DNA of 64,000 bases, taken from a phage. The stretch lies in assembly GCA_025830695.1 (NCBI GenBank), contig GCA_025830695.1_4111.2; one strand, given 5' to 3'. A program made the translations under genes and the position numbers. The notes beneath the pieces are model-generated. The model had not been told where the DNA came from. It saw only the letters and a program-made list of their open reading frames with translations, and searched no databases. Below are positions 1 to 53,136 of the stretch, one piece after another (the first letter of the stretch is position 1; each line of letters begins with the position of its first letter).

Positions 1-1
1 A

Positions 2-2144: not shown

Positions 2145-2336
2145 ATGTTGATTTATCAAAGTGATAATATTCGTGTTATGCAGCATCCCTACTTACAAAT
2201 CTTTGATGTGCAGCAGTATATGGAAGGTGATGACCCAAGAACCTATGGTCGTAAGTATGATTACTTCACTGTAAAGCAGTGTAAAAATATTAACGAAGTA
2301 CGACAATTAGTTCAAGAACTTCAAAACAAAGGTTGA
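2145..2336 (+). CDS. hypothetical protein (63 aa)
   Basis: In-frame ATG after AAGGA; stop lies inside terminator stem. Confidence 0.45.
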   Translation: MLIYQSDNIRVMQHPYLQIFDVQQYMEGDDPRTYGRKYDYFTVKQCKNINEVRQLVQELQNKG

Positions 2337-2354
2337 CTTCGGTCAGCCTTTTTT
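2331..2354 (+). terminator. intrinsic terminator GGTTGACTTCGGTCAGCC + T-tract; TTGACT in stem doubles as -35 for TATAAT 18 nt downstream
   Basis: 7-bp stem, UUCG tetraloop, T6 run; TATAAT at 2357-2362. Confidence 0.8.
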
Positions 2355-2390
2355 GTTATAATTCTCTTAATAAATTAGAGGATTTTAATT

Positions 2391-2831
2391 ATGTATGTAT
2401 ATCGTTTTGAACTTAAATTTAGTTACATTGAACCTAACTTAGATCCTGCACGAACTGTAGGTCCGTTTGCACGGTATTCAACCAGATACAGTACTAAAAA
2501 TGGATTTGACCGTTTGCTTATGACTACACCTTCTCAATTCCAACCTGAACCAACTGAGGATGGGATCTATTCAATCAAAAGTGGATGGGTATTTGGCTGT
2601 CAAAGTTTGAAAGATTTGTTCAGATTCTTCACTATGGACTTGGGTAAATTGCATCGTGCTGGGTTTGCTATATCTGTATATGAAGTTCCAGACCACCATG
2701 TAGACATTGGTCGTAATCAGGTTCAGTACTATTGCGGTAGTGCTAAATTAGTTCGTATCATGTCAGTTAAGGAAGCAAAGGATGAGTTCCGACAAAGTAA
2801 AAGAGAAACACATGAGGTAATATATGGATAA
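2391..2831 (+). CDS. hypothetical protein (146 aa)
   Basis: ORF with AGAGGA SD. Confidence 0.6.
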   Translation: MYVYRFELKFSYIEPNLDPARTVGPFARYSTRYSTKNGFDRLLMTTPSQFQPEPTEDGIYSIKSGWVFGCQSLKDLFRFFTMDLGKLHRAGFAISVYEVPDHHVDIGRNQVQYYCGSAKLVRIMSVKEAKDEFRQSKRETHEVIYG

Positions 2832-3168
2832 AACTCAAATAGAATTAAAGAAATTTGTTTCATTCTATCTTCCTGATGACCCACGTAATTCACAAAAAGA
2901 TATTGAATATTATAATATCCTATCTAAACAGTTAATGAGAAAGTTTCAACAGTGTTTAACTATATTCAATACAGATGGAAGACGTAGATACCGAATCGTT
3001 TCAATGAATGATGAAAACGCAAATTTCTTTGATTACGATGTGGTTTTTAGAGCATATAATGATGATCGTATAAAATTAAATTATGATCAAATTATACTTG
3101 ACCTGAATGTTATATGTGTTATAATCACTCACGTAGCCGAACTTAATGGTTTTAAAGAATGGTATTGA
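2824..3168 (+). CDS. hypothetical protein (114 aa)
   Basis: ORF overlapping upstream stop (coupled). Confidence 0.55.
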   Translation: MDKTQIELKKFVSFYLPDDPRNSQKDIEYYNILSKQLMRKFQQCLTIFNTDGRRRYRIVSMNDENANFFDYDVVFRAYNDDRIKLNYDQIILDLNVICVIITHVAELNGFKEWY

Positions 3169-3182
3169 ATAGAGGATAACAT

Positions 3183-3449
3183 ATGAAGCTTAAATTACAA
3201 TATAATGGATTTACTTTACGTAATGATACTGAATTTATTAATCGTTCTCCTGGTGCTGAACTGTTTTTACGAGAGATGAACATTCCTTTCATCATTACTA
3301 CAGTGGGCGACCGTGAAGTTCTACAATACGCAGAGCATCCGATCATTGATGTTCCTTGGTACTCTGAGCATATGTACATGGATATGGCACGTCGCTACAA
3401 CTGTAAGTTCGTAGTTGAAGGTGATAAAATTACAGTCGAATTTAAATAA
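3183..3449 (+). CDS. hypothetical protein (88 aa)
   Basis: ORF with GAGGA SD. Confidence 0.55.
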   Translation: MKLKLQYNGFTLRNDTEFINRSPGAELFLREMNIPFIITTVGDREVLQYAEHPIIDVPWYSEHMYMDMARRYNCKFVVEGDKITVEFK

Positions 3450-3460
3450 GGTAAATTAAA

Positions 3461-3754
3461 ATGATCAGTACTTCAGTTAATGAAAGCATCGTCGCTGACG
3501 TAGAAATGGTTAAAGAATGTGCAGATGAAACTCTTCGTGATATGTACATTAATGATTTAATTACTGAATACGGTAGTCGTGGTGTACACGAATTTATTCG
3601 TTTAAGTGGAGAGTTGATGAAAAATCGAATTCGTATGAAGCTTAACGTACATCCAAAAGCATGGGCATTTACATTAAAATACGCAGAAGATATTGTGAAT
3701 TTGCGTCGAACTGAAGTATATGAACGTTTGCACAATGGTATGTTAGATAAATGA
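3461..3754 (+). CDS. hypothetical protein (97 aa)
   Basis: ORF with AAGG SD. Confidence 0.55.
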   Translation: MISTSVNESIVADVEMVKECADETLRDMYINDLITEYGSRGVHEFIRLSGELMKNRIRMKLNVHPKAWAFTLKYAEDIVNLRRTEVYERLHNGMLDK

Positions 3755-3764
3755 TTGTAAAATA

Positions 3765-3789
3765 GGAATTCTTAAATGAATTCCTTTTT
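3765..3789 (+). terminator. intrinsic terminator (GGAATTC-TTAAAT-GAATTCC + T5)
   Basis: Perfect 7-bp inverted repeat followed by TTTTT. Confidence 0.65.
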
Positions 3790-3806
3790 GTTTATAAGGT
3801 ATAGTA

Positions 3807-4028
3807 ATGAAATATATAGTACTTGTACTGATATTATTCAGTACTGTTGTAAGTGCTAAACAAAAAGAATATGTTAAATGTATAAATTATGAAGAGAAAT
3901 ATGTTGAAACATATAAAAAAAGTATAATTAAAAACGTTTCGATTACTAACAGAGCAACAATCATTGTACTTAAAAATGGGTTAATTATGCTATATAAACC
4001 ACACGTTAAATGTGAAATTATTAATTGA
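3807..4028 (+). CDS. small secreted protein with signal peptide (73 aa)
   Basis: N-terminal MKYIVLVLILFSTVVSAKQ. Confidence 0.55.
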   Translation: MKYIVLVLILFSTVVSAKQKEYVKCINYEEKYVETYKKSIIKNVSITNRATIIVLKNGLIMLYKPHVKCEIIN

Positions 4029-4035
4029 GGAAATT

Positions 4036-4608
4036 ATGAATCGTAAAGGTCGTTTTAAAGTATCAAAAAAGAACAAAAGTTCTAGGTTTAAACCTATTGT
4101 TTTAACAGTTAAATCTAACAAAGAATTAACTGCACTTAGTAAAAAAATAATTTCATCTAAGATTGAAGTATCATACGTAAATTCATTAAAATATATGAAT
4201 GTAAAACCACTGGACAAACTCATTTCACTTATATTTCAGCGTAATGATTTTGAGATATCAGTAGATGATTATAGAGCCTATAATACTGGTTTCATTAATG
4301 TTACTTGTAGTAAAGAACTAACTGAGTTGGAAAACTTGTCATGTATAGTAAATCTAGATAAAGGTGTAGTGAAATACAATTTTGTACATTTTACTAATAT
4401 TAATAATGGCATGGGTGTACAATCCAGACCTATAGTACCTACATGTGATGTTACTAAATTAGCAAAGCTCAATGATGAAGAATATTTTCAAGAAAGTATT
4501 GTGACTGAGCATTTAGATGATATAATAGCTACTTACAAAGAGTGCATATGGGTTTTGAATGCTATAAAGCCTAAATTGTGTTTAATGAATATTGTTCGTG
4601 ATTTATGA
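4036..4608 (+). CDS. hypothetical protein (190 aa), EEYFQESxV-motif family
   Basis: ATG after GAGG SD; shares EEYFQESIV motif with genes at 61029, 61339, 62045. Confidence 0.55.
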   Translation: MNRKGRFKVSKKNKSSRFKPIVLTVKSNKELTALSKKIISSKIEVSYVNSLKYMNVKPLDKLISLIFQRNDFEISVDDYRAYNTGFINVTCSKELTELENLSCIVNLDKGVVKYNFVHFTNINNGMGVQSRPIVPTCDVTKLAKLNDEEYFQESIVTEHLDDIIATYKECIWVLNAIKPKLCLMNIVRDL

Positions 4609-4621
4609 ATAGGGAATCGTA

Positions 4622-5065
4622 ATGAGTTGGGTAAATGTTAATAGTATTGAACTTAACGAACAAGATATTTTTGCATTTGTAAATTTAACCAATAATACAG
4701 TACTAAAAGGGCGTTTGTTCAGTGCGAGTGATGGATATAAATGGATCTCTTTGATGGATGATAGTGGTGTGATTTATAATGTAATGCAATTACCCCAATG
4801 GGTATATAGTAACACTGCCGACGATGTTCTTGCCGCAGTTATGCGTGAGTTTGAAAAACTCCCAGGTGGTGATATCAAAAACAAAGTTTTTAATGCAGAA
4901 CGTAAAAATTATACAGCACAGCAGTTGGAATCCCTTGCCATTGCTGCTTATCAAGCTGCTATTAAGAAGCCAGAGTGCGTTATTCTTAAGTATGTACCAG
5001 ACTTAAAACTTACGTTGGAAGACATGGATGCATTCATTTTTACATCTGAACTTGATCAGTACTAA
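4622..5065 (+). CDS. hypothetical protein (147 aa)
   Basis: ORF with GGGAA SD. Confidence 0.55.
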   Translation: MSWVNVNSIELNEQDIFAFVNLTNNTVLKGRLFSASDGYKWISLMDDSGVIYNVMQLPQWVYSNTADDVLAAVMREFEKLPGGDIKNKVFNAERKNYTAQQLESLAIAAYQAAIKKPECVILKYVPDLKLTLEDMDAFIFTSELDQY

Positions 5066-5180
5066 TTTAACTTTGGGACAACCATTCTTATTATGATATA
5101 ATGTTTTATGTCATTCGATATAAATGACAACGGAACTATAAATATTATAGTAAAATTTATCTCTTATAGGAGTTATAAAA

Positions 5181-5564
5181 ATGGTTGATAAATGGAATAA
5201 GAAAGATCCATCACATGATGTTGATATTTCTGGTCTAGACAATGCACATAAGCACAAGTATCTAGATTCACTAGGTCTTCTAAAACCGGACCAAAGTCTT
5301 GCACATGATCGTCCATCCCGTGAAAAAGCATTTAGCCTAGAATCACTAGGTCATGAGCTTAATCGTGTGTTTGAGGATCACCCAATCTATGTACGTGATA
5401 TTATCGAGAAACTTAAAGTAACTCCTAAAGAGCACTTTAAAGCAACAGTACACTCTGCATTCCGTGCATTGCATGATTCTCTCAAGAAAACTCACAATCT
5501 TCGTAAAATTCATGATGAAATCGTGAATGCAATCGAAAGTGAAAAACATAAGTTCAAGAAGTAA
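5181..5564 (+). CDS. hypothetical protein (127 aa), paralog of N-terminus of 5811 gene
   Basis: AGGAG SD; shares LDSLGLL and KxxVTPKE motifs with 5811..7364. Confidence 0.6.
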   Translation: MVDKWNKKDPSHDVDISGLDNAHKHKYLDSLGLLKPDQSLAHDRPSREKAFSLESLGHELNRVFEDHPIYVRDIIEKLKVTPKEHFKATVHSAFRALHDSLKKTHNLRKIHDEIVNAIESEKHKFKK

Positions 5565-5570
5565 TAAAAA

Positions 5571-5597
5571 GGGGTTGACTAAGGTCAGCCCTTTGTT
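5571..5597 (+). terminator. intrinsic terminator variant (GGGGTTGACTAAGGTCAGCCC)
   Basis: Inverted repeat with T-rich tail. Confidence 0.65.
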
Positions 5598-5633
5598 GTA
5601 TCATAACTTCTCAATATAACTGAGGTATCATAT

Positions 5634-5747
5634 ATGCAAGGTTTGAAATTTGTAGTTGCTGCACTCATCGCCGCAGTACTGGTTGGTGGTGTATTCTATG
5701 TAGTGGATCAAAAAGTAAATCCACCTGCACAAGAACAATCTAAGTAA
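5634..5747 (+). CDS. micro membrane peptide (37 aa) between two terminators
   Basis: GAGGT SD; single hydrophobic helix; below the 60-aa track cutoff. Confidence 0.4.
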   Translation: MQGLKFVVAALIAAVLVGGVFYVVDQKVNPPAQEQSK

Positions 5748-5755
5748 CAAAATAA

Positions 5756-5781
5756 GGTTGACTTCGGTCAGCCTTTTCTTT
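5756..5781 (+). terminator. intrinsic terminator GGTTGACTTCGGTCAGCC + T-tract
   Basis: UUCG-tetraloop hairpin plus T-rich tail. Confidence 0.8.
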
Positions 5782-5810
5782 ATACTATAAATATAGACAT
5801 AGAGAAAAAA

Positions 5811-7364
5811 ATGAAATCTATGGAGAGAAATCAAATGCCAAGTAATTTTACTGATAAAAATGGTGGTAACATGGCTGGTCACTCGGATAAATGGAGTGAA
5901 CGCAACCGCCGACCAAATAGTTATCAAGCAGGTCAAGGTTCACGTGGATCACGTAACCAAGGAACTGGTCTAGCTGGTAAAGCAAACGCAGAAGCAGGTG
6001 AAGTTAAGAGTACTGAGAACATGACTGAGCTAGAAAAGCTACGTTATGTTAATTCATTGGGACTTCTTAATGCTACACAAAAACAACGCCTAGCTGATAT
6101 GGAACGTGAAGAAAAAGAAAAGTCTTCTCCTGCGAAAGAAGAACCAAAACAAGAAGCACCAAAGGCGGTTAACCCTGTCAAAGAATTGTCTGATAAGTTA
6201 GGTAAGATTTTTGCTAATAAACCACAACTTATCCAAGGTATTGTGAAAGAATTGCAATCTGTACCTAAAGAAGAATTAAAAGTCAAAGCACAAGCTGTAC
6301 TTGATGCAATGAGTGGAAATACCAGTACTGAACCAACTGAAGTATTCAGTACTATAATGCGTGCACTTGAAGGTACGCAACAAGGTGATGTGCCTGCACA
6401 AGAGGAAGTAAGTCTTGAAAGCGTACTTAAAACATTTGATAGTATTGGTAAAGAAGACCGTGCTAATGCTCAACAAGTTAAGAATGTACTAGCTAAGTTA
6501 GAAAACCGTCTGGAAGGTAAAGACGATAAGATTAAATTAGTATCTGATGCAGTTAACGATGCACTTAAATCTTATGTACAAGGTGAAAAGAGTCGTTTTG
6601 TAACTGCAATGGATGCTGCATTCAATACTATGAAAAAGTATGAAGCTGATCACGGTGAGAAGGTTACACGAGATGGTTATCTGATGCGTGATGATGAAGA
6701 AGGTGCAGTTGACCAGAAAGATGCTGAAACATCTCATGATGATTTACCTGATACTGTTGATATGGATGGTTACATTCATCGTCCAGAAATGGGAGAGTTT
6801 GGTTCTGACAAAGAAGGATTTGAACATGCAATGGCAGTGTACAAAGCTCTCGTGGACAATCCAGATTATGCCAACCGATTTGTAGATGAGTTTGATAGTG
6901 CATGGAACAACTACAAAGACAAAGGTTATGACTTCCCTGCTGAGGCAGCATTCTTTGAACTTGGTAAACTATTAGCTAAACATGGAATTGATGTAGGTTC
7001 TAAAGATGGTACTGATACTGATGGCATGGAAGCAGAATTGGCTAAAGATCGTGAAATGAACGACAACTCCATTCATGAACTCCAAAAGCTAATGATGTGG
7101 ATATCCGATATTGGTAAAAAAGCTGGTGCTGATAATAAGAGTATCAACAAAAACATTAGTTGGATTAAAAGTAATGTTGGTAAAAATGCTCGTAAACTAC
7201 AAAAAGCATGGACTGATTTAGTAAATGGTGCTGATGATGTTGACATTGAATCACCTGAAGCATACGAATATGCATTAACTACTCTTGATAATTCCTTTAA
7301 AGATTACGATAACGGTAACGTAACTCATTGGGAAAAGGACATCATGAGCAAATACGGTAAATGA
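5811..7364 (+). CDS. large acidic hypothetical protein (517 aa)
   Basis: Longest plus-strand ORF; D/E/K-rich. Confidence 0.7.
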   Translation: MKSMERNQMPSNFTDKNGGNMAGHSDKWSERNRRPNSYQAGQGSRGSRNQGTGLAGKANAEAGEVKSTENMTELEKLRYVNSLGLLNATQKQRLADMEREEKEKSSPAKEEPKQEAPKAVNPVKELSDKLGKIFANKPQLIQGIVKELQSVPKEELKVKAQAVLDAMSGNTSTEPTEVFSTIMRALEGTQQGDVPAQEEVSLESVLKTFDSIGKEDRANAQQVKNVLAKLENRLEGKDDKIKLVSDAVNDALKSYVQGEKSRFVTAMDAAFNTMKKYEADHGEKVTRDGYLMRDDEEGAVDQKDAETSHDDLPDTVDMDGYIHRPEMGEFGSDKEGFEHAMAVYKALVDNPDYANRFVDEFDSAWNNYKDKGYDFPAEAAFFELGKLLAKHGIDVGSKDGTDTDGMEAELAKDREMNDNSIHELQKLMMWISDIGKKAGADNKSINKNISWIKSNVGKNARKLQKAWTDLVNGADDVDIESPEAYEYALTTLDNSFKDYDNGNVTHWEKDIMSKYGK

Positions 7365-7374
7365 TAAAACTAAA

Positions 7375-7399
7375 GGTTGACTTCGGTCAGCCTTTTTTT
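7375..7399 (+). terminator. intrinsic terminator GGTTGACTTCGGTCAGCC + T7
   Basis: Hairpin plus T-tract right after stop. Confidence 0.85.
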
Positions 7400-7434
7400 G
7401 TAAATACAAAAGAGGAATTAAGAAGAGGATTACA

Positions 7435-7686
7435 ATGAAAAAATATATTATATTTGGAATTGTATTATTTTCCAGTACTGCTTATGGTGCAGATTATCAT
7501 TGCTCCGTAGCAAGGCAGGATTTCAGAAATGGGGAGTTCTATACTACCTCATACACAAAAGGAATAATACACGACACCGACAGAACTATTGGATTTAATG
7601 CGTTTGACAACAAAGATTCATATACTTCAGGTATACTATCTGAGCGTAAGACTGATGTAATGGGAATAGAAAAAGAGTTCCGGTGA
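7435..7686 (+). CDS. small secreted protein with signal peptide (83 aa)
   Basis: N-terminal MKKYIIFGIVLFSSTAYGADY. Confidence 0.55.
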   Translation: MKKYIIFGIVLFSSTAYGADYHCSVARQDFRNGEFYTTSYTKGIIHDTDRTIGFNAFDNKDSYTSGILSERKTDVMGIEKEFR

Positions 7687-7696
7687 TTCAGTAGCA

Positions 7697-8020
7697 ATGT
7701 GCAATGACATTGAAAGTACTAAAACAATTTATTATAATAATGAACGTAACTATCGTTTTCATAATTTAACCACAAATAAAAGTTTACTATTTTACAATTG
7801 TAAAGAAGTAATACTCCCATCAGACAATAGCTGTACTCCAACTAATCAACCCCCAGCACAATGTAATACTCCCTCTGAACCTGATAAAAATAAAAAAGAC
7901 AAAGATAAAGATAAAAAAGAAGACAAAAAACCTTTAAAAGATAAAAAGAAAGATAAAAAACCTAATCCGTTTAAAAATAATAAACAAGCACAACCCGATA
8001 TGACGTGTAAAATAAAATAA
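7697..8020 (+). CDS. low-complexity K/D-repeat protein (107 aa)
   Basis: C-terminal KDKDKDKKEDKK repeats. Confidence 0.45.
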   Translation: MCNDIESTKTIYYNNERNYRFHNLTTNKSLLFYNCKEVILPSDNSCTPTNQPPAQCNTPSEPDKNKKDKDKDKKEDKKPLKDKKKDKKPNPFKNNKQAQPDMTCKIK

Positions 8021-8029
8021 GGATATATA

Positions 8030-8449: not shown

Positions 8450-8457
8450 TAATAAAA

Positions 8458-8482
8458 GGGTTGACTTCGGTCAGCCTTTTTT
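8458..8482 (+). terminator. intrinsic terminator GGGTTGACTTCGGTCAGCC + T6; stem TTGACT 18 nt upstream of TATGAT
   Basis: Hairpin plus T-tract; TATGAT at 8485-8490. Confidence 0.85.
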
Positions 8483-8518
8483 GTTATGATGTTGGTATTA
8501 ACTACAGAGGATAAAGTA

Positions 8519-12685: not shown

Positions 12686-12955
12686 ATGTACGCATTGTAT
12701 AATAAAGAAAAGAAACGATTTGCTAAGGTTGAAATTTCGATTGATACGTTTGATATGTTGGAGTACTGTATTGTAACGGACCTATATGCTAACTTGTATT
12801 ACGTTCTTGATGACGTATCAGTACTGCAACGATTGCTTGAGAATTCCAAAAGTCAATGCCAGGGCATCCATGATGGTTCATCCTATGAAACTCCTGAGTG
12901 TTCATATGGCTATCTGGACGGCTATGAGATTGTTAAGTTGGGGATCATTGAATAA
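12686..12955 (+). CDS. hypothetical protein (89 aa)
   Basis: ATG after GGAGA, 1 nt after upstream stop. Confidence 0.5.
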   Translation: MYALYNKEKKRFAKVEISIDTFDMLEYCIVTDLYANLYYVLDDVSVLQRLLENSKSQCQGIHDGSSYETPECSYGYLDGYEIVKLGIIE

Positions 12956-12961
12956 AGAAAA

Positions 12962-12986
12962 GGGTTGACTTCGGTCAGCCCTTTTT
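12962..12986 (+). terminator. intrinsic terminator GGGTTGACTTCGGTCAGCCC + T5; stem TTGACT 18 nt upstream of TATAAT
   Basis: Hairpin plus T-tract; TATAAT at 12989-12994. Confidence 0.85.
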
Positions 12987-13022
12987 GCTATAATTATTTC
13001 ATCAAGACGAGAGGATGAATAC

Positions 13023-13538
13023 ATGACACGCATTAACTTAGTACACGTTAAAGAACTTGCTGACCAACATCTGATGGCTGAATATCGTGAACTCCCACGT
13101 GTATTTGGTGCTGTACAAAAACACGTTCAAGCACGTAAGCGTGTACGTGATTTCAAAATTAATAGTACTTATCTGTTAGGTTCAGGTCATGTGACATTCT
13201 TTTACGACAAGTTATTGTACTTACAGAAGCGTCATATTGATATTGTCAACGAATGTCTGCGTCGTGGTATGAAGATTCAAAACACTGAAGTAAACGACAT
13301 TAGCGGCTTCCCTGCTGAGTTTTGTAATGACTACGTACCAACGGAGTCAGAGATTAAAATGTCTCGTGATCGTTTGATTGAGAAGCTCCAGATGAAGCCT
13401 ACGTGGTATAAGTTTACTGATGTTGAATGTCCACAGTACGTTAAAGATATGCAGAACGTAAGTAGTAAGAACGAATCTAGTACTGATATGTTCGACGAAA
13501 TTGAAGAACAAATCAAAGATGAAATGAATAATTATTAA
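13023..13538 (+). CDS. denV: pyrimidine-dimer DNA glycosylase / endonuclease V (171 aa)
   Basis: N-terminal ~130 aa closely match T4 endonuclease V ([40 protein letters not shown]); extra acidic C-terminal tail. Confidence 0.93.
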
Positions 13539-13576
13539 AGGAAAGGGTTGACTTCGGTTACACAAAGGAACATAAC

Positions 13577-13877: not shown

Positions 13878-14237
13878 ATGGCATCTTTAAGTGAAATCGC
13901 AGAATACAACCCACTAACAATCTCAACAATTCAACGTACAAAAACTTTTTATTTCCGTCCTGCTGATGGATGGAAACGTGGAATGAATGGTGACTATCGA
14001 GTACTGGAAGATTCGCTCATCGAGCGTATCAACTCTGAACTACAGAACTATGAAGGTGTTAAAGTTGTGCGTTCAACTTCTCGTTATTTTGAGTACTACA
14101 TTGAGTCTTCAACTGTAAATGAAAACTCATCATTATCGGTGGACAACACTGATATTCTTCGTAATGCAGTTGGTATGTTATGCAACATTGCAGAAGAAAT
14201 GGGATTAACTATTAGTACTATGAGTGAATTAGAATAA
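13878..14237 (+). CDS. hypothetical protein (119 aa)
   Basis: ORF with GAGGAA SD. Confidence 0.6.
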   Translation: MASLSEIAEYNPLTISTIQRTKTFYFRPADGWKRGMNGDYRVLEDSLIERINSELQNYEGVKVVRSTSRYFEYYIESSTVNENSSLSVDNTDILRNAVGMLCNIAEEMGLTISTMSELE

Positions 14238-14243
14238 CATAAA

Positions 14244-14268
14244 GGGTTGACTTCGGTCAGCCCTTTTT
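14244..14268 (+). terminator. intrinsic terminator GGGTTGACTTCGGTCAGCCC + T5; stem TTGACT 18 nt upstream of TATAAT
   Basis: Hairpin plus T-tract; TATAAT at 14271-14276. Confidence 0.85.
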
Positions 14269-14304
14269 GCTATAATCATTTCATCAACTGAAGAGGGTAA
14301 AGAA

Positions 14305-44143: not shown

Positions 44144-44153
44144 ATGAAAAAAG

Positions 44154-44177
44154 TGGTTGACTTCGGTCAGCCATTTT
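44154..44177 (+). terminator. intrinsic terminator TGGTTGACTTCGGTCAGCCA + TTTTG
   Basis: UUCG-tetraloop hairpin. Confidence 0.8.
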
Positions 44178-44203
44178 GCTATTATATATTCATTGAGAGA
44201 TAG

Positions 44204-47111: not shown

Positions 47112-47119
47112 AAAAGTAT

Positions 47120-47179: not shown

Positions 47180-47196
47180 ACTGAGAGGAAAGAAAA

Positions 47197-47409: not shown

Positions 47410-47426
47410 TATAAGGAGTACAGCTT

Positions 47427-47519
47427 ATGCAAATGAATCCGATGATTATTGTGTTAGCTGTACTTATGATCATTCATGCAATAGTAGAAGTATTAACGCA
47501 ATCAGGAGTAATAAAATGA
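47427..47519 (+). CDS. micro membrane peptide (30 aa)
   Basis: AAGGAG SD; coupled to next ORF by ATGA. Confidence 0.35.
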   Translation: MQMNPMIIVLAVLMIIHAIVEVLTQSGVIK

Positions 47520-47689
47520 TTCAAGTAGAATTATCAGTACTGAAAGATCTGTTTTATCGGTTAGGTACTACTGGCGAGTATCCTAAAAGTGATACCGCAA
47601 AACTTTTTGTATCACTCGACTTATGGCAACGCGAACAATTAGTAATGTCCTGGCGTAAAGGTAAAGCAGATAGCGAGGTGAAAGCATGA
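47516..47689 (+). CDS. hypothetical protein (57 aa)
   Basis: ATGA overlaps on both sides. Confidence 0.4.
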   Translation: MIQVELSVLKDLFYRLGTTGEYPKSDTAKLFVSLDLWQREQLVMSWRKGKADSEVKA

Positions 47690-47835
47690 AAGAATTCTTA
47701 TTCGAAGTAGTGTTTCAAGGTGTCGGTAGTAACCAACTGATTCGCTCAAGTGGTTATAATGTTAACCAGGCATGGAATAACATTAAACAAATGTACCCGA
47801 ACGCTATCACCTATCGCAACCCGAAAGAAGTTTAA
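47686..47835 (+). CDS. hypothetical protein (49 aa)
   Basis: ATGA overlap; ends before terminator. Confidence 0.4.
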   Translation: MKEFLFEVVFQGVGSNQLIRSSGYNVNQAWNNIKQMYPNAITYRNPKEV

Positions 47836-47849
47836 AAATATTTGAAAAA

Positions 47850-47875
47850 GGGATTGACTCCGGTCAGTCCCTTTG
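47850..47875 (+). terminator. intrinsic terminator variant GGGATTGACTCCGGTCAGTCCC + TTTG
   Basis: 8-bp stem; TTGACT in stem ~17 nt upstream of TATTAT. Confidence 0.7.
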
Positions 47876-47933
47876 CTATTATATACGCATAGAAACAAAT
47901 CAGCCCACAGGGTGCATAAATGTATCTATTGTT

Positions 47934-47941
47934 TGCTGGTG
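47934..47941 (+). other. Chi-like octamer GCTGGTGG
   Basis: Intergenic, after conserved CCCACAGGGTGCAT element. Confidence 0.45.
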
Positions 47942-47973
47942 GCTAGTACTGAAAACTATTTTTAAAAAAGTAC

Positions 47974-48039
47974 TTGCATTGTACTTAGAATCAAGTATAA
48001 TGTTTTACATCAGGACGGGGAACGAAACAAGTAACCCCG
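47974..48039 (+). promoter_or_regulatory. promoter (TTGCAT-16-TATAAT) + leader hairpin ACGGGG...CCCCGT
   Basis: First of two tandem promoters for 48151 gene. Confidence 0.55.
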
Positions 48040-48089
48040 TTAAGTAGTCCAGGAGTAAGACATACGAAAAACTCCCCTGATAAAATAGT

Positions 48090-48117
48090 TTGACAATAGA
48101 AAGTAAACGAGTATAAT
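48090..48117 (+). promoter_or_regulatory. promoter (TTGACA-16-TATAAT)
   Basis: Second tandem promoter upstream of 48151. Confidence 0.6.
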
Positions 48118-48150
48118 ACTTACATCAACCACTGATAAGGAAACATTAAA

Positions 48151-48426
48151 ATGCGGATTCTACTGACAGCTAACGAAATCGAACAAGTACTGACTACTAA
48201 CCTGGAAGACTGGAAACGTGAAGCAGATATCCAGGCGGTTCAACTGCTTAACGATAAGTTAACGCCGGATGACTTAAGCAAGATTGTAGATCCTCAATTC
48301 TACGAAGATATTCACGACACCGCGTTAAGCGTCGAGGATGTACTTGATAAGCACTACATTGATATTGATTTGCAGGTTTACGGTCGTAAAAACTTTATCA
48401 CTATTCACGACATTTATAATAATTAA
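48151..48426 (+). CDS. hypothetical protein (91 aa)
   Basis: AAGGAAA SD. Confidence 0.6.
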   Translation: MRILLTANEIEQVLTTNLEDWKREADIQAVQLLNDKLTPDDLSKIVDPQFYEDIHDTALSVEDVLDKHYIDIDLQVYGRKNFITIHDIYNN

Positions 48427-48429
48427 GTA

Positions 48430-48487
48430 TTGACAAAGTATCTTAGTACTGTATAATAGTTTACATCAAGGGGGGAATGGTTCCCCT
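48430..48487 (+). promoter_or_regulatory. PeSL-like cassette (TTGACA-16-TATAAT)
   Basis: Hairpin GGGGGAA-TGG-TTCCCC. Confidence 0.65.
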
Positions 48488-48509
48488 CCTAACAAAGAGA
48501 GAAATAAAA

Positions 48510-48833
48510 ATGGCTATGATCCTTACCCAGAAAGTAGAACTGAAAATTGTAACCTCCTTTGACATTAAAGTTAATCGGTGGACTGATTCACACGGCAATA
48601 CTTACCACTCTTGCTACGTGTCTGCATTGATTGGTGATCGTTGGGAAGACCTGGGACATGAAACCTTTACATACGGTTACGGTACGCAAGGCGAATACAC
48701 TGGTTTGGAGATCATTAAAGAAACCGTTATAGGTTTCAACCCGAAAGAAAAAGTTATTCACCGCATCGAAAAAGAGATTAACAAAGAAATAACAGTTCGC
48801 TACTACGATGTAAAACGTAAGAAAGACATGTAA
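48510..48833 (+). CDS. hypothetical protein (107 aa), paralog of 42366
   Basis: Shared NRWTDSHGNTYHSCYVS and TFTYGYG. Confidence 0.6.
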   Translation: MAMILTQKVELKIVTSFDIKVNRWTDSHGNTYHSCYVSALIGDRWEDLGHETFTYGYGTQGEYTGLEIIKETVIGFNPKEKVIHRIEKEINKEITVRYYDVKRKKDM

Positions 48834-48855
48834 TAGAATCCATTTAAAGTACTAT

Positions 48856-48884
48856 TTGACATTGCCCAGATAGTACTTTATAAT
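48856..48884 (+). promoter_or_regulatory. promoter (TTGACA-17-TATAAT) flanked by AGTACTAT/ATAGTACT inverted repeats
   Basis: Degenerate copy upstream of paralog at 37596. Confidence 0.55.
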
Positions 48885-48928
48885 AGACTCTAACTTGTAG
48901 TACTAACTTAACTAATAGGATGTATACC

Positions 48929-49324
48929 ATGATTACTAAATTCTACGCTACCCGTGAAGCTGCCCGTATTGTTGCACGCGAGGAAGGAGCAGCATTTAAA
49001 GACATGGGCAAAGATGCACCGAAAGGTCAACGCTGGGCCGTACAGTTCAAAGAAATCTCTGATATCGTGAATTCACCGGAGCCAGTACTAACAGCAGCAG
49101 AACTAAAACGAGCGGATTTACTGGCGTCAATACTTGATGCACAAGATGAGTTTATCGCTGATTCTGATATCAAAGTACAGACAAACCATACCGCTTGGAC
49201 TCACGCGGATCACCTGGCAAACCTTAAGCGTCCAAGTGAACTGGTACGCAACCAGAAAGAGATCCGACACGACCGTAAGGGTAATCGTGTAACAGTATAT
49301 AGTAAACGCCGCCAGGTTATCTAA
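48929..49324 (+). CDS. hypothetical protein (131 aa), paralog of 37596
   Basis: Shared N- and C-terminal motifs. Confidence 0.55.
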   Translation: MITKFYATREAARIVAREEGAAFKDMGKDAPKGQRWAVQFKEISDIVNSPEPVLTAAELKRADLLASILDAQDEFIADSDIKVQTNHTAWTHADHLANLKRPSELVRNQKEIRHDRKGNRVTVYSKRRQVI

Positions 49325-49346
49325 TAACTTGCAGTACTAACAACAC

Positions 49347-49371
49347 GGCGGGATCAGTTCCCGCCTTTTTT
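49347..49371 (+). terminator. intrinsic terminator (GGCGGGA-TCAG-TTCCCGCC + T6)
   Basis: GC-rich hairpin plus T-tract. Confidence 0.8.
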
Positions 49372-49386
49372 ATAGGATAAACTAAA

Positions 49387-49641
49387 ATGATTAAGGTACA
49401 ACTATCTAAAGATAATATCTTGCGGGTACACTATAAAGCACCACAGAGAATCATCACAAAGGCCGTACAGCTTGCTAATGAGTTTATTAATGGTAACCTA
49501 TTACCAAGGAAGTTAAGCAACGGAAAACTGCGTGTAATCGATGTAGACACTAACAACAGAATAGTAATTGAGAACACAGGAAAGATAAACCTATATGAAC
49601 ACCAACAATATAATAAGAAAATAAAACTAATATCACGTTGA
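49387..49641 (+). CDS. hypothetical protein (84 aa)
   Basis: AGGATAAA SD. Confidence 0.55.
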   Translation: MIKVQLSKDNILRVHYKAPQRIITKAVQLANEFINGNLLPRKLSNGKLRVIDVDTNNRIVIENTGKINLYEHQQYNKKIKLISR

Positions 49642-49666
49642 CAGTACTCAATTGTTTTAGTATTAT
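49638..49666 (+). promoter_or_regulatory. promoter (TTGACA-17-TATTAT)
   Basis: Duplicated at 49914 with same leader. Confidence 0.55.
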
Positions 49667-49694
49667 GTACACATACCAACACGGGAGAAACAAA

Positions 49695-49913
49695 ATGAAA
49701 TTATCTAAAATCGAAAAGAAAACTATTGATGAAGCAGTTAAGCACGGTTATACCTTTCGTAATGATTCACATTTTACCAATTTTCAACAAGGCCAAAGGA
49801 CTATTAAAAAACTAATTGACAAAGGTTTATTAGTTAAAGTAGATAACGGTAACGGCATTGAGTATCAGCCAACCCAAGACGCATTATCTTTAAAGAAATA
49901 TGCAATTATCTAA
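49695..49913 (+). CDS. hypothetical protein (72 aa)
   Basis: ATG after GGGAGAAA; track ORF is promoter-derived extension. Confidence 0.55.
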   Translation: MKLSKIEKKTIDEAVKHGYTFRNDSHFTNFQQGQRTIKKLIDKGLLVKVDNGNGIEYQPTQDALSLKKYAII

Positions 49914-49942
49914 TTGACAGTACTCAAATGTTTTAGTACTAT
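49914..49942 (+). promoter_or_regulatory. promoter (TTGACA-17-TACTAT)
   Basis: Paralog of 49638 promoter. Confidence 0.5.
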
Positions 49943-49971
49943 ATGTACATACCAACACGGGGGAAAACAAA

Positions 49972-50214
49972 ATGATTACTTTAGAAAAACGTATCAAAGA
50001 AACTACATCGCTGGTGGAATTGTTAACAGTACTGAAATGCCGTACTACTCGGTTTAGTACACCGGACTTTATTAATATGGTTGATGTTAACGGTCGTTAT
50101 CGCATTGCAGTAGAACAAGGAACAGCGAAAGTATTCAGTACTAAAAACACTAAGGAAGTGATTCACGCGGTTAGTGTGAAAAAAGTGGTTGCCATTGATA
50201 GTAAAGTACTGTAA
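49972..50214 (+). CDS. hypothetical protein (80 aa)
   Basis: GGGGGAAAA SD. Confidence 0.55.
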   Translation: MITLEKRIKETTSLVELLTVLKCRTTRFSTPDFINMVDVNGRYRIAVEQGTAKVFSTKNTKEVIHAVSVKKVVAIDSKVL

Positions 50215-50245
50215 GATAGTTTCATTAACTCAAGGAGAACATGCA

Positions 50246-50830
50246 ATGCGTAATTATACTAAATTCATCCGTACACTGTCAGAAATGGAAACCAACAAAG
50301 AGATCCTTTCAGCTTGTCGGTTAGCTGGCCTGGAGATCATCGGGGCGGGTTCTTCCCGTATCGTATTCGCTTTAAATGATCGGTTAGTGATTAAGGTCGC
50401 CAATTGTGATGCGGGTGTAGAACAAAATGAAACTGAATGTAAGGTATGGAATTTTTTAGACTATGACCGCCCTCAATTGAAACAGTACTTTGCAAAGGTG
50501 CATATGCATTTATGCGATCCTGATAATATGTTTATCGTTATGGATCGGTTGAGTACTGCAAGTAAAGGCAGTGTGAAGCACGTTAACGCGTGCAACGAAT
50601 TAAAGTACAATATTAAACGTAATGCCATTGAACGCCAGCACCGCTTTGCTGATGCACTACAACACGTCGATGATACATTATCAACACTAACGATAAGAGA
50701 TATCAGAAAACAGAATATCGGCCAGGATCGTAATGGACTTATTAAAGTACTTGATTACGGTTTAACCCGCAATATCTGGAATCAGTACTATAAAAAGCGT
50801 GATGTAAAAGCCGTAACTATAACACGATAA
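50246..50830 (+). CDS. kinase-like motif protein (194 aa)
   Basis: AGGAGA SD; GAGSSRIVF...IKVA and RDIRKQNIG...IKVLDYGL resemble kinase Gly-loop, catalytic loop, DFG-like. Confidence 0.55.
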   Translation: MRNYTKFIRTLSEMETNKEILSACRLAGLEIIGAGSSRIVFALNDRLVIKVANCDAGVEQNETECKVWNFLDYDRPQLKQYFAKVHMHLCDPDNMFIVMDRLSTASKGSVKHVNACNELKYNIKRNAIERQHRFADALQHVDDTLSTLTIRDIRKQNIGQDRNGLIKVLDYGLTRNIWNQYYKKRDVKAVTITR

Positions 50831-50844
50831 AAAAGATTAAAAAA

Positions 50845-50868
50845 GGGATTGACTCCGGTCAGTCCCTT
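50845..50868 (+). terminator. intrinsic terminator variant GGGATTGACTCCGGTCAGTCCC + TTTG
   Basis: Same as 47850 and 53112. Confidence 0.7.
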
Positions 50869-50981
50869 TGCTAATATATATTCATTGAGAGATAACTCAC
50901 TGACCCACAGGGTGCATAAGTGTATCTATTATATAAGTATTCAGTACTGAAAACTATTTTAAAGTATTTGATAAAAAGTAC

Positions 50982-51042
50982 TTGCATTGTACTTAGAATC
51001 AAGTATAATGTTTTATATCGAGAGGGGGAAATGGTTCTCCCT
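50982..51042 (+). promoter_or_regulatory. PeSL-like cassette
   Basis: TTGCAT 50982-87, TATAAT 51004-09, hairpin AGGGGGAAATGGTTCTCCCT. Confidence 0.65.
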
Positions 51043-51061
51043 GGCAATAAGGAATAAAATC

Positions 51062-51283
51062 ATGACTACAATGACTTGCATTTACGCTTCCAATCTTCTG
51101 AATGATGCGGCCTTTAATGTTGATTCAGAATATCAATGTTATCGGGATGAAAATAAAAAAGTTTTTGTAGTTGATAATAATGGTTTCCATATTGAATTAC
51201 AATCCGGTTTCACTGGTGTTGATGGTAAATCAGTATGGGGCGTACAGGATGATAAAGGCACATATCATTTTAAACGTAATTAA
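51062..51283 (+). CDS. hypothetical protein (73 aa)
   Basis: ATG after AAGGAATAAA. Confidence 0.55.
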   Translation: MTTMTCIYASNLLNDAAFNVDSEYQCYRDENKKVFVVDNNGFHIELQSGFTGVDGKSVWGVQDDKGTYHFKRN

Positions 51284-51286
51284 GTA

Positions 51287-51345
51287 TTGACAAAGTATCT
51301 TAGTACTGTATAATAGTTTACATCAAGGGGAGAATAGTTCTCCCC
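51287..51345 (+). promoter_or_regulatory. PeSL-like cassette (TTGACA-16-TATAAT)
   Basis: Hairpin GGGGAGAATAGTTCTCCCC. Confidence 0.7.
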
Positions 51346-51367
51346 GATACTAAAAGGAAACAAAATT

Positions 51368-51640
51368 ATGTCTAGCTACTCCGCTACTATGATCATTAAA
51401 GATATGAACGGTAATCCTACTTCTGCTGGTGGATCATTTGGAAACATTAACTTAGATGGTCGGTTATCAATTGAATCAGCCATCAATGCAGCGAAAGAAG
51501 TTTTTAAGAATGAATGTACTGTTAGTAAGCTGGATTATATGGGATTCGCTATCGAGAAAACTAATCGTTTTGTGAACTACAAAAATCCACTGATGATTGA
51601 TACTAACCTGAAAGCTAACGAAGTGGAATACTTATTATGA
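51368..51640 (+). CDS. hypothetical protein (90 aa)
   Basis: AAAAGGAAA SD. Confidence 0.6.
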   Translation: MSSYSATMIIKDMNGNPTSAGGSFGNINLDGRLSIESAINAAKEVFKNECTVSKLDYMGFAIEKTNRFVNYKNPLMIDTNLKANEVEYLL

Positions 51641-51828
51641 CAGTTGAAGAAGTTAAAAAAGTACTGGCAGTACTACGCTATCATAACCATTGCAAGGTTA
51701 AGAATGATCCTGATTATGTTGATTCATCCCTGGAGGAAGACACATTAAACGCAATAAGCCATATGCAAACATTAGCAAAGCGTATGACCGAAAAGAATAG
51801 ACCGGACTATATCGGAAATAAAATTTAA
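51637..51828 (+). CDS. hypothetical protein (63 aa)
   Basis: ATGA overlap with upstream gene. Confidence 0.5.
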   Translation: MTVEEVKKVLAVLRYHNHCKVKNDPDYVDSSLEEDTLNAISHMQTLAKRMTEKNRPDYIGNKI

Positions 51829-51835
51829 AAAGTAC

Positions 51836-51896
51836 TTGCATTGTAGTTAGATTAACGTATAATGTTTTACATAGAGCGGGGGAATAGTTCTCCCGC
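51836..51896 (+). promoter_or_regulatory. PeSL-like cassette
   Basis: TTGCAT 51836-41, TATAAT 51858-63, hairpin GCGGGGGAATAGTTCTCCCGC. Confidence 0.65.
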
Positions 51897-51914
51897 CAGT
51901 CCGGGAGATACACC

Positions 51915-52181
51915 ATGAACACTATCGAAATCACTATCAATGCACACGTATACGACAACGTAGTACTGCAAACTACTATGACCGCTAATGATACCAGTAC
52001 TTTGCGGAATACCGTTGTAAGTGCTGTATGTGCTGCAATCGGTGATGTAGCCCTGGAAAATGCAGAACACATCAACAACGGTTTCACTATGTGCAAACGT
52101 GATAACGCAAAACATATCATCTTAGAAGGTTACGGCGGTGTAGAATATAATCTTTATATGAAAAAAGTACTTGCAAAGTAA
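51915..52181 (+). CDS. hypothetical protein (88 aa)
   Basis: GGGAGA SD. Confidence 0.6.
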   Translation: MNTIEITINAHVYDNVVLQTTMTANDTSTLRNTVVSAVCAAIGDVALENAEHINNGFTMCKRDNAKHIILEGYGGVEYNLYMKKVLAK

Positions 52182-52227
52182 CTAAAACAAAGTATAATGT
52201 TTTGCATAGGGGGAGATATCCTCCCCC
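52171..52227 (+). promoter_or_regulatory. PeSL-like cassette
   Basis: TTGCAA 52171-76, TATAAT 52193-98, hairpin GGGGGAGATATCCTCCCCC. Confidence 0.65.
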
Positions 52228-52245
52228 ACTAAAAGGAGTACTAAA

Positions 52246-52470
52246 ATGGCTAACTTTGATGAACTGATGCGGGAAGTAGCTAACCTGGCAGAAGAGAAGA
52301 AATCATTCGATTCTATCTATAACACCGCTCATCGTGATTCAGTACTGGCATGTACTCAGGATCAAAAAGATGAACTAATCGCCACATATCATGAAGCATG
52401 GAAGTACTACCGCCAATGGGAGAAAGAAGAAAGCGAGTCTACCATCAACGGCATCAATAATCTAATCTAA
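52246..52470 (+). CDS. hypothetical protein (74 aa)
   Basis: AAAGGAG SD. Confidence 0.6.
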   Translation: MANFDELMREVANLAEEKKSFDSIYNTAHRDSVLACTQDQKDELIATYHEAWKYYRQWEKEESESTINGINNLI

Positions 52471-52488
52471 AGTTTTATTTCAGTACTA

Positions 52489-52517
52489 TTGACATAGCTT
52501 GATAGTACTGATATGAT
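52489..52517 (+). promoter_or_regulatory. promoter (TTGACA-17-TATGAT)
   Basis: Upstream of 52546 gene. Confidence 0.5.
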
Positions 52518-52545
52518 AACTTTACTAACTACAAGGGGAAACATC

Positions 52546-52803
52546 ATGGAACAATTCACACAATATCGGGTAAATCCTCAAGCTATGGCCTACGTAGAAG
52601 ACCATAAAACGTTACCAGTACTGCAACCAGTTAAAGGCCATATCTATCGTGCGATGGCGTGGAGTACTGCCCAGGATGGCTATAAAACCGTTGCCGTTGG
52701 TATGTACTGCGGTAATGGTGAATGGTTTGATCCAAATAATCCGGTAGCAATTAACAGTACTGAAAAAATGAAATGGGCCGACTACATCGAAGATATTTCA
52801 TAA
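52546..52803 (+). CDS. hypothetical protein (85 aa)
   Basis: ATG after AAGGGGAAA. Confidence 0.55.
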   Translation: MEQFTQYRVNPQAMAYVEDHKTLPVLQPVKGHIYRAMAWSTAQDGYKTVAVGMYCGNGEWFDPNNPVAINSTEKMKWADYIEDIS

Positions 52804-52810
52804 AAACTAT

Positions 52811-52871
52811 TTGACAGTACTAACCAGTAATGTATAATGTTTTACATAGAGCGGGGGAATAGTTCTCCCGC
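52811..52871 (+). promoter_or_regulatory. PeSL-like cassette (TTGACA-16-TATAAT)
   Basis: Hairpin GCGGGGGAATAGTTCTCCCGC. Confidence 0.7.
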
Positions 52872-52893
52872 CAATAGTTTGGAGTAAAACATT

Positions 52894-53094
52894 ATGTCTA
52901 TCGCTCTCGCCCTGGTTGAAGTACTGAAAGAAGCTAAAGCCAACCTTATCGATGTACAGATTAAGGAATTGCAAAATGGTTTAATCGGCTGTACTTGTAC
53001 CGCTGGTGGAGCGGCAGACTATCGAGAACACGAATCACTAGAATCGTTGGTCCGGTATCTTACAATCATCGTAGAAGATTGGAGAATCATCTAA
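52894..53094 (+). CDS. hypothetical protein (66 aa)
   Basis: GGAG SD. Confidence 0.55.
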   Translation: MSIALALVEVLKEAKANLIDVQIKELQNGLIGCTCTAGGAADYREHESLESLVRYLTIIVEDWRII

Positions 53095-53111
53095 CAAAAA
53101 AGAATAAAAAA

Positions 53112-53136
53112 GGGATTGACTCCGGTCAGTCCCTTT
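53112..53136 (+). terminator. intrinsic terminator variant GGGATTGACTCCGGTCAGTCCC + TTTG
   Basis: Third copy of this variant. Confidence 0.7.

Follow-up and report, generated by a model that had tools for sequence, protein, structure and literature searches.

The stretch of phage DNA analyzed here, referred to throughout as the window, is 64,000 nt long (GenBank assembly GCA_025830695.1, contig GCA_025830695.1_4111.2) and contains a repeated intergenic element of about 44 nt in which a -35 hexamer lies inside the stem of a terminator-like hairpin and a -10 hexamer usually follows just beyond it. Positions 1-19,483 are 97.9% identical to Escherichia phage vB_EcoM_G17 (G17) and to Sharanji, and 97% identical to 121Q, all of them Asteriusvirus jumbo myoviruses whose genomes are about 350 kb in size, and the window is collinear with approximately 96.4 to 163.4 kb of 121Q. 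By these identities the source is an Asteriusvirus jumbo coliphage. The copies of the element form two clusters, at 2-15 kb and at 44-53 kb, both within regions of small plus-strand open reading frames (ORFs) that are nearly all annotated as hypothetical; the few genes with names encode a protein kinase and endonuclease V. A minus-strand array of RCC1-like paralogues separates the clusters and has no copy of the element. A scan of the whole window for tRNA and transfer-messenger RNA genes found none, and Rfam models had no match in it at gathering thresholds; at E values up to 5, the region from 35 to 54.5 kb gave chance-level matches only.

Composite elements of a related kind, the promoter-early stem-loop cassettes (PeSLs), were described by Arbiol et al. 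in 2010 (PMC2839356), whose account gives about 50 of them in each of the phages RB49 and phi1. Each comprises an AT-rich tract with a stop codon, a sigma-70 promoter close to consensus, a stem-loop that includes G.T pairs, a Shine-Dalgarno sequence, and an ATG. They are concentrated in hyperplastic regions and are found at the borders of insertions and deletions (indels). One PeSL stem-loop cut lacZ expression about as much as the rrnB T1 terminator, one whole PeSL gave approximately 13,000 Miller units in a lacZ fusion, and neighboring PeSLs recombined into mini-circles, with one crossover mapped to the loop (PMC2839356). The account of Comeau et al. in 2014 (PMC4122927) extends PeSLs to the phages PST/T4 and nt-1/KVP40 and includes "half" PeSLs at indels. 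In this study, we examine the repeated element of the window as a terminator, as a promoter, and as a site of genetic exchange, and compare it to these cassettes.

Census of the repeated element

A search for the 18-mer GGTTGACTTCGGTCAGCC with up to 3 mismatches returned 12 matches in the window, all on the plus strand, as compared to 0 in 100 dinucleotide-preserving shuffles, and a chance origin of the repeats was rejected. The variant TTGACTCCGGTCAGTCCC is matched exactly at 47854, 50849, and 53116. A covariance model trained on the 11 copies of the window and on four from other phages, run unfiltered over both strands of the 64 kb, recovered exactly 11 intact copies, all on the plus strand, with scores of 50.6-65.9 bits. 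The antisense images of these copies scored 15-27 bits, and nothing else exceeded 15 bits, so that no diverged additional copy was detected. The census is thus 11 intact copies and one half-copy at 13546 (Table 1), the copies having 36-73 nt of near-identity in common. A preceding sequence-only reading of this DNA had listed a recurrent element at these sites, a variant form at the last three, and a remnant at 13545. The element is real at all of them, at positions that agree within 1-2 nt because an optional leading G had been counted there; the variant is exact where it was placed, and the remnant retains only the 5' half of the element and does not fold.

Table 1. Copies of the element and other recurrent features in the window (plus strand unless stated; spacer lengths in nt between TTGACT and the -10 hexamer; folding energies in kcal/mol).
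Feature	Position	18-mer match	Stem, loop, and T-tract	-10 region and spacer	Energy (z)	Bits	Setting
Copy 1	2322..2365	2331	GGTTGAC/GTCAGCC, UUCG, six T's	TGT-TATAAT, 18	-14.0 (-4.9)	59.1	ATG 2391; upstream ORF (2091/2145-2336) ends in TGA at 2334-2336
Copy 2	5564..5607	5573	loop UAAG	TATCAT, 18	-18.0	51.2	precedes 38-codon minigene (5633-5746); left boundary of 0.15-kb module absent from UE-S1 and ph0011
Copy 3	5747..5790	5756		TATACT, 17	-12.4	50.6	right boundary of minigene module
Copy 4	7366..7409	7375	hairpin and seven T's	none acceptable	-13.3	55.3	left boundary of three-gene, 1.04-kb module absent from UE-S1 and ph0011
Copy 5	8450..8493	8459		TGT-TATGAT, 18	-15.7	56.5	precedes protein kinase gene; right boundary of three-gene module
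Copy 6	12954..12997	12963		TGC-TATAAT, 18	-18.8	65.9	precedes endonuclease V (denV) gene, ATG 13023
Half-copy	13537..13563	13546	A-tract, 5' arm, and loop kept (AAAGGGTTGACTTCGGT), then unrelated sequence		-1.7 (+0.88), no fold		runs into ATG 13577; left junction of 0.69-kb, two-ORF insertion relative to ph0011
Copy 7	14236..14279	14245		TGC-TATAAT, 18	-18.3	59.5	ATG 14305
Copy 8	44146..44189	44155		TGC-TATTAT, 17	-15.9	58.7	leader of about 180 nt with CCCACAGGGTGC motif and second promoter at 44290, then ATG 44369
Copy 9	47843..47886	47852	GGGATTGAC/GTCAGTCCC, UCCG	TGC-TATTAT, 17	-19.5	56.4	leader of copy-8 type
Copy 10	50838..50881	50847	variant stem	TGC-TAATAT, 17	-19.5 (-7.3)	60.9	leader of copy-8 type
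Copy 11	53105..53148	53114	variant stem	TGC-TATTAT, 17	-19.5	58.6	leader of copy-8 type
Class B cassettes	35451-52838, e.g. 36732, 37192, 43692, 44725, 47120, 51287, 52171						about 23 copies
12-mer CCCAnnGGGTGC	+ 38262, 44212, 45897, 47904, 50904, 53166; - 39943, 38330, 36395, 36179						ten promoters
RCC1-array hairpins	21993, 23215, 24468, 25732, 26952, 28162 (also 19465, 20741)						array at 19490-34000, minus strand
AGCCCACCTTAAACAGTGGGCT hairpins	40748-40769, 41483-41504						735 nt apart

Hairpin and promoter geometry

The element reads, in order, as a stop codon, an A-tract, the 5' arm (G)GGTTGAC, the loop TTCG, the 3' arm GTCAGCC(C), three to seven T's, and usually a TGn-TAnnnT extended -10 region. 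A stop codon lies 0-17 nt upstream in all copies. In copy 1 the TGA of the preceding ORF forms bases 2-4 of TTGACT within the 5' arm, and the stop codon, the -35 box, and the stem therefore overlap. The stem is of 7-9 bp, is GC-rich, and is closed by C(UUCG)G, a classic extra-stable tetraloop; the first 8 nt after the stem include 4-7 T's. The plus-strand RNA of the intact copies folds at -12.4 to -19.5 kcal/mol, with z scores of -3.9 to -7.3. The reverse strand of the three copies that were folded is weaker by 5.3-6.3 kcal/mol, because a U.G wobble in the sense RNA becomes a C.A mismatch in the antisense RNA. These features are those of the intrinsic terminators of E. coli and its phages, namely a GC-rich hairpin preceded by an A-tract and immediately followed by a U-rich tract, on the coding strand just past a stop codon. 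The depositors of G17 independently annotated the hairpins as ARNOLD terminators (-13.5 to -17.0), and a simple terminator scan lists 6 of the 11 copies. The element differs from an ordinary intrinsic terminator in that its U-tract is limited to 3-7 residues, since a -10 must follow at a fixed distance, and in that the sequence of its stem is constrained by the -35.

The -35 hexamer consists of the inner five bases of the 5' arm and the first base of the loop, which is why it reads TTGACT and not TTGACA, and the remainder of the loop, the 3' arm, and the T-tract make up the promoter spacer. A TAnnnT hexamer is found 17 or 18 nt beyond TTGACT in 10 of the 11 intact copies, bearing out the earlier claim that TTGACT inside the stem sits at this distance from a TATAAT-like hexamer in most copies. 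Three copies have TATAAT, three have TATTAT, and TATCAT, TATACT, TATGAT, and TAATAT occur in one copy each; 8 of the 11 copies have the TG of an extended -10. In the 2-15 kb cluster, all seven copies lead, by way of a leader of approximately 20 nt and a Shine-Dalgarno site, to an ATG; counted from the start of the element it lies at +55 to +61, and in six copies at +60 or +61. No gene directly follows the four copies at 44-53 kb, where there is instead a leader of about 200 nt; these copies are part of a paralogous unit of approximately 320 nt with 71% mean column identity.

The association of hairpin and -10 was also seen in the IMG/VR database, which was searched with the exact 18-mer as the key, so that the flanks lie outside the key and are unbiased by it. 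A TAnnnT hexamer at spacer 16-19, almost always 17 or 18, was present in 46 of 52 distinct contexts (88%), as compared to 1-6 of 52 (2-12%) at five control offsets. With the 14-mer core TTGACTTCGGTCAG as the key, no -10 was present in 99 of 155 contexts. The stem was longer by five contiguous pairs in 45 of the 56 contexts with a -10, and 57 of the 99 without one had no further stem pairs; the core matches that lack both a -10 and an extended stem are probably mostly due to chance. Extension of the stem thus co-occurs with the -10, which implies that hairpin and -10 travel as one module.

These data bear on the simplest alternative, that the hairpins are terminators only, the TTGAC and TATAAT-like sequences being by-products of a genome of 35% G+C and the downstream genes being transcribed by read-through or from other promoters. 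The annotation of G17 treats them solely as terminators, copy 4 (7375) has no -10 and is probably a terminator only, and promoter-like hexamer pairs in general are not enriched between 1 and 20 kb (97 versus 99.6 expected from shuffles). Such by-products would nevertheless be hard to reconcile with a -10 at spacer 17-18 in all other intact copies, commonly with its TG, or with the 88% frequency at this spacing in unrelated phages. The fixed distance of the Shine-Dalgarno site and ATG from the element, the invariance of the TTGAC pairs where outer pairs vary, and the absence of TTGAC from other terminators of the window (e.g., 3764, 40748, 49347) point the same way, and we regard a purely terminating role as very unlikely.

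Conservation of the stem is consistent with a double constraint. In an alignment of 15 sequences, 95.6% of the stem cells pair, and compensatory changes (G-C to A-U, or to U-A) occur at three outer pairs; one of them preserves pairing in copy 9, where G-C has become A-U. The five inner TTGAC/GTCAG pairs are invariant, as expected if the -35 adds its own constraint. The U.G wobble between the first T of TTGAC and a G is present in 14 of the 15 sequences, and in IMG/VR the wobble form of the 18-mer occurs in 39 stretches and the perfect palindrome, GTCAACC, in 5, an approximately 8-fold difference. This asymmetry looks selected: the wobble would retain the sense RNA stem and the sense -35 and deny the antisense strand both a TTGAC and a strong hairpin, thereby making the element directional. 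The perfect palindrome is found in a minority of the copies of relatives, at 16338 in ph0011 (L047), at 6296-6313 in 121Q (L027), and in the RaK2 loci L019 and L160; these carriers, which include the 121Q counterpart of copy 4, would serve as natural controls for the wobble.

The inverted repeat TTGAC-N4-GTCAG over a -35 could in principle be an operator, that is, a DNA site for a dimeric regulator of phage or host that turns the early promoters on or off, with the RNA hairpin incidental. Its position is the classical one for an operator, the stem is kept by sequence more than by covariation, and Arbiol et al., in their account of PeSLs, speculated on a protein that binds the PeSL stem (PMC2839356). 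Yet the half-sites are asymmetric, and the predominance of the wobble form over the palindrome favors pairing in RNA more than it does a symmetric site in DNA. C(UUCG)G is an RNA-specific loop, and the A- and T-tracts lengthen the RNA stem and supply the U-tract. In addition, the module occurs in at least eight phage lineages with different hosts, including the Brochothrix phage A9, for which one common regulator is improbable. We therefore give the operator explanation little credence.

It is equally doubtful that the hairpin serves mainly to shield the upstream mRNA from 3' exonucleases or to mark a processing site. Stabilizers of 3' ends share the arrangement of a stable UUCG hairpin immediately past a stop codon, and the short U-tracts of the variant copies suggest weak termination. 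But 3'-end protection is compatible with termination, not an alternative to it; the hairpins score as terminators both in ARNOLD and in the simple scan; and protection would leave the T-tract, the fixed -35/-10 geometry, and the strand asymmetry unexplained.

Genome junctions and other repeats

Positions 1-20 kb of the window were aligned with four relatives: G17, 121Q, UE-S1, and ph0011. Where the window has the single copy at 14245, G17 has 1.4 kb and 121Q has 2.1 kb of additional genes, and this extra DNA is flanked by two copies of the element with 52 identical nt, from AAAGGG to ATTTCATCAAC. The window sequence here equals the left flank, one element, and the right flank of G17 and 121Q. 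Both UE-S1 and ph0011 lack the minigene between the copies at 5573 and 5756, as well as the three genes between those at 7375 and 8459, with one element left at each site. At 12963, ph0011 carries a further 3.8 kb of genes that include two more copies of the element. A single intact element in ph0011 corresponds to the remnant at 13546, two ORFs, and the copy at 14245 of the window; the left junction of this difference falls in the 3' arm, just after the loop. In all, the junctions of 5 of about ten indel or replacement events in the 20 kb lie inside the element, a pattern with a rough probability of 8e-6 when junctions are restricted to intergenic gaps.

These alignments bear out, for the cluster at 2-15 kb, the suggestion of the sequence-only reading that the repetition offers homology for recombination: copies appear to act as portable homology at which recombination has inserted, deleted, and exchanged cassettes among Asteriusvirus genomes. 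The suggestion does not extend to the copies at 44-53 kb, as discussed below. A further explanation, that the element is a selfish mobile repeat of miniature inverted-repeat transposable element (MITE), repetitive extragenic palindrome (REP), or homing type, with promoter and terminator features secondary, draws on the same facts of many copies, indel junctions, and occurrence in many unrelated phages. We accord it almost no likelihood. The copies are always intergenic and always co-oriented with the flanking genes, with a constant interval to the next start codon; target-site duplications are absent, as are terminal repeats other than the hairpin; and the junctions reflect exchange within shared homology rather than insertion of the element. 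A MITE- or REP-type repeat was specifically rejected, as all copies are co-oriented on the plus strand and no target is duplicated at the junctions. Each of the rival explanations accounts for less than a combined terminator and promoter does, and none covers together the fixed spacing of -35, -10, and ATG, the difference between strands, the tetraloop, and the occurrence in unrelated phages.

A second family of plus-strand cassettes, designated class B to distinguish it from the above element (class A), is more numerous. Its layout is AAAAAGTAC-TTGCAA/TTGACA-N16-17-TATAAT-GTTTTACATC, followed by the hairpin GGGGAGAA-nnnn-TTCTCCCC, a Shine-Dalgarno sequence, and an ATG. Of 23 copies, 17 have a hairpin that folds at -11.5 to -15.7 kcal/mol and begins 10-14 nt past the -10. 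So placed, it would be at the 5' end of the new transcript, and without a U-tract it cannot terminate the upstream unit. Class B resembles class A in being a repeated promoter and stem-loop ahead of small ORFs, at rearrangement junctions, and its poly-G/poly-C stems resemble the PeSL stems of RB49. Class B copies are within 60 nt of 6 of 15 junctions with 121Q, as compared to 2.2 by random placement (p approximately 0.012), and class B rather than class A copies look like the sites of shuffling in the region from 35451 to 52838.

Other recurrent hairpins and motifs were seen in the window. The RCC1-like array is a tandem series of paralogues about 1.2 kb long, for which the 121Q annotation gives putative DNA condensation proteins. 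A recurrent terminator, GCCAGTAC-nnn-GTACTGGC with a T-rich tail, stands after every gene of the array. This hairpin family is distinct from the class A element and contains AGTAC. A third type of recurrent hairpin in the early region is represented by two identical plus-strand terminator-like copies of AGCCCACCTTAAACAGTGGGCT plus TTTTTTG, with no -35 inside. The palindrome AGTACT occurs 275 times in the window, 12.5-fold above the 22 expected from dinucleotides, and the next palindromic hexamer is at 1.7-fold. Its flanks favor C-AGTACT-G, and it occurs 3.3 times per kb of coding DNA and 8.5 times per kb of non-coding DNA. It lies just 5' of the -35 and of the -10 in many promoters and is also found in the terminator stems of the RCC1 array. 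The literature searched had no mention of AGTACT in jumbo phages; candidate roles include a site for a phage sigma factor or regulator, or one related to modification or restriction.

The invariant 12-mer CCCAnnGGGTGC lies approximately 20-25 nt downstream of the -10 of ten promoters, including those of all four class A copies at 44-53 kb, and is placed alike in 121Q and in further jumbo-phage contigs (L002, L018, L025, L038). Some copies are in convergent promoter pairs about 70 nt apart (e.g., 38262 on the plus and 38330 on the minus strand), so that each transcript would have the motif at its 5' end and the complement of the motif near its 3' end. The leader that contains it has no Rfam match, and single-sequence folds disagree, giving no consistent structure; the motif could be a leader RNA, a protein-binding site, or a small-RNA family. 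The AGTACT excess, this motif, and the class B family seem at least as unusual as the class A finding.

Relation to known cassettes and significance

The class A element shares with PeSLs an intergenic composite of stop codon, AT-rich tract, sigma-70-like -35 and -10 sequences, an overlapping terminator stem-loop, Shine-Dalgarno site, and ATG. Like PeSLs, it is present in many copies in variable regions of small ORFs of no known function (11 in two regions here, tens for PeSLs), has G.T pairs in its stems, and is found, in intact and half copies, at indel or replacement junctions of close relatives; this last trait is seen at 2-15 kb and not for the copies at 44-53 kb. It differs in its carrier, an Asteriusvirus jumbo phage as opposed to the T4-like Straboviridae, and in its arrangement. 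In the accounts of these phages, the usual place of the stem-loop in RB49 and phi1 is over the -10 or between it and the -35, and in PST it is upstream of the promoter. Here, in contrast, the 5' arm always contains the -35, a UUCG tetraloop caps the stem, and the T-tract acts as spacer. Such an arrangement may not be new, since the PeSL phage nt-1 itself carries GGGTTGACATATGTCAGCCC-TTTTTT-G-TATTCT, with TTGACA inside the same stem. Promoter and terminator activity and mini-circles were demonstrated by experiment in RB49 and phi1; here promoter and terminator activity is predicted from sequence. A comparison can also be made with the morons of lambdoid phages, each an ORF between a promoter and a terminator of its own, which are likewise self-contained expression cassettes whose gain or loss leaves neighboring transcription undisturbed (PMC1524935). 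Their promoter and terminator are separate and unrelated and their entry is thought to be non-homologous, whereas here one repeated element comprises both signals and the homology for exchange.

Taken together, these observations make it very probable that the element is a PeSL-type composite cassette, consisting of a terminator, a -35 within its stem, and a promoter, in the early small-ORF regions of an Asteriusvirus jumbo phage. The sequence-only reading had proposed that one module ends the upstream unit and starts the next, and all of its predictions that sequence can test were found: a stable strand-specific hairpin, A- and T-tracts, a stop codon, and the -10 spacing. By analogy with the tested PeSLs of RB49 and phi1 (PMC2839356), an upstream RNA polymerase would transcribe the hairpin and release its RNA in the U-tract, and host sigma-70 holoenzyme would initiate approximately 7 nt past the -10, producing a new RNA that lacks the hairpin. 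Stopping and restarting in this way would insulate each unit from its neighbor and allow it to be expressed on its own; we infer that the units so driven are early. A ribosome that terminates at the nearby stop codon could also cover the 5' arm and modulate termination.

Several observations weigh against this reading or limit its reach. The phage encodes an RpoD-like sigma factor of its own, which makes the use of host sigma-70 an assumption, and the literature searched had no Asteriusvirus transcriptome and no transcript-end or reporter data for this phage group. Copy 4 departs from the scheme in its missing -10. The U-tract is short in the variant copies (three T's, then GCTATTAT), where termination may be only partial. 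Covariation is thin, the stem being kept mostly in sequence and the three variant copies being paralogues that count as one event, and support for pairing from this source is suggestive only. Lastly, the class A copies at 44-53 kb are at 0 of 15 rearrangement junctions with 121Q, and a role in recombination is thus shown only for the cluster at 2-15 kb.

The module is not confined to Asteriusvirus. A 42-nt query located it in 178 phage records, the carriers including Asteriusvirus, RaK2/K64-1, Eneladusvirus (fHe-Yen9-03/04), Erwinia jumbo phages, vibriophages like KVP40 and nt-1, Aeromonas phage 65, AS-zj, the CR8/CB7 group, and the Gram-positive Brochothrix phage A9. The string AAAGGG-TTGAC-TTCG-GTCAG-CCCTTTT-TGn-TATAAT recurs almost letter for letter in Asteriusvirus, RaK2/K64-1, GAP32, Eneladusvirus, the KVP40/nt-1-like phages, Aeromonas phage 65, CR8/CB7, and Brochothrix A9, and in the record of Yersinia phage fHe-Yen9-03 the depositors annotated -35 and -10 signals on the same module. 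The literature searched contained no description of PeSL-type cassettes in Asteriusvirus or RaK2-like phages, nor was the element described in the promoter, terminator, and transcriptome literature on 121Q, PBECO4, RaK2, phAPEC6, Sharanji, and Asteriusvirus; the paper on phage CBB gives RpoD-like promoters and terminators separately, and those on RaK2 and Sharanji do not mention promoters or terminators. What is new is therefore the presence of a PeSL-type cassette in this lineage. The PeSL concept itself was already known, and no new principle is involved.

The module could have spread between lineages on PeSL-type cassettes or have arisen by repeated convergence, the latter being conceivable because nearly every base serves two signals. 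A bolder proposal, which we put forward tentatively and think rather unlikely, is that it is a near-universal stop-and-restart device of large virulent phages, not specific to any family, in which a release site inside the next promoter would let the same polymerase re-initiate on the spot. In single-molecule work, E. coli RNA polymerase was retained and slid on DNA after termination (PMC6978380, PMC10372574, PMC11364550). Re-initiation by the same polymerase may exploit this behavior, and early transcription may thereby be reset for each unit without loss of polymerase. If true, such a hand-off would link what single-molecule work has recently observed with the design of a natural sequence. 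The 44-nt insulate-and-restart part, together with the directional U.G wobble rule, might also be of use in synthetic operons.

For the annotation of these genomes, the 11 hairpins should be labeled as terminator and early-promoter cassettes and not as bare terminators, which would define early units in a phage group where the function of more than 80% of the genes is not known. PeSL-mediated shuffling would extend from the T4-like phages to the RaK2/121Q jumbo lineage, and would explain, by a concrete mechanism, the small-ORF patchwork that distinguishes these candidate therapeutic phages.

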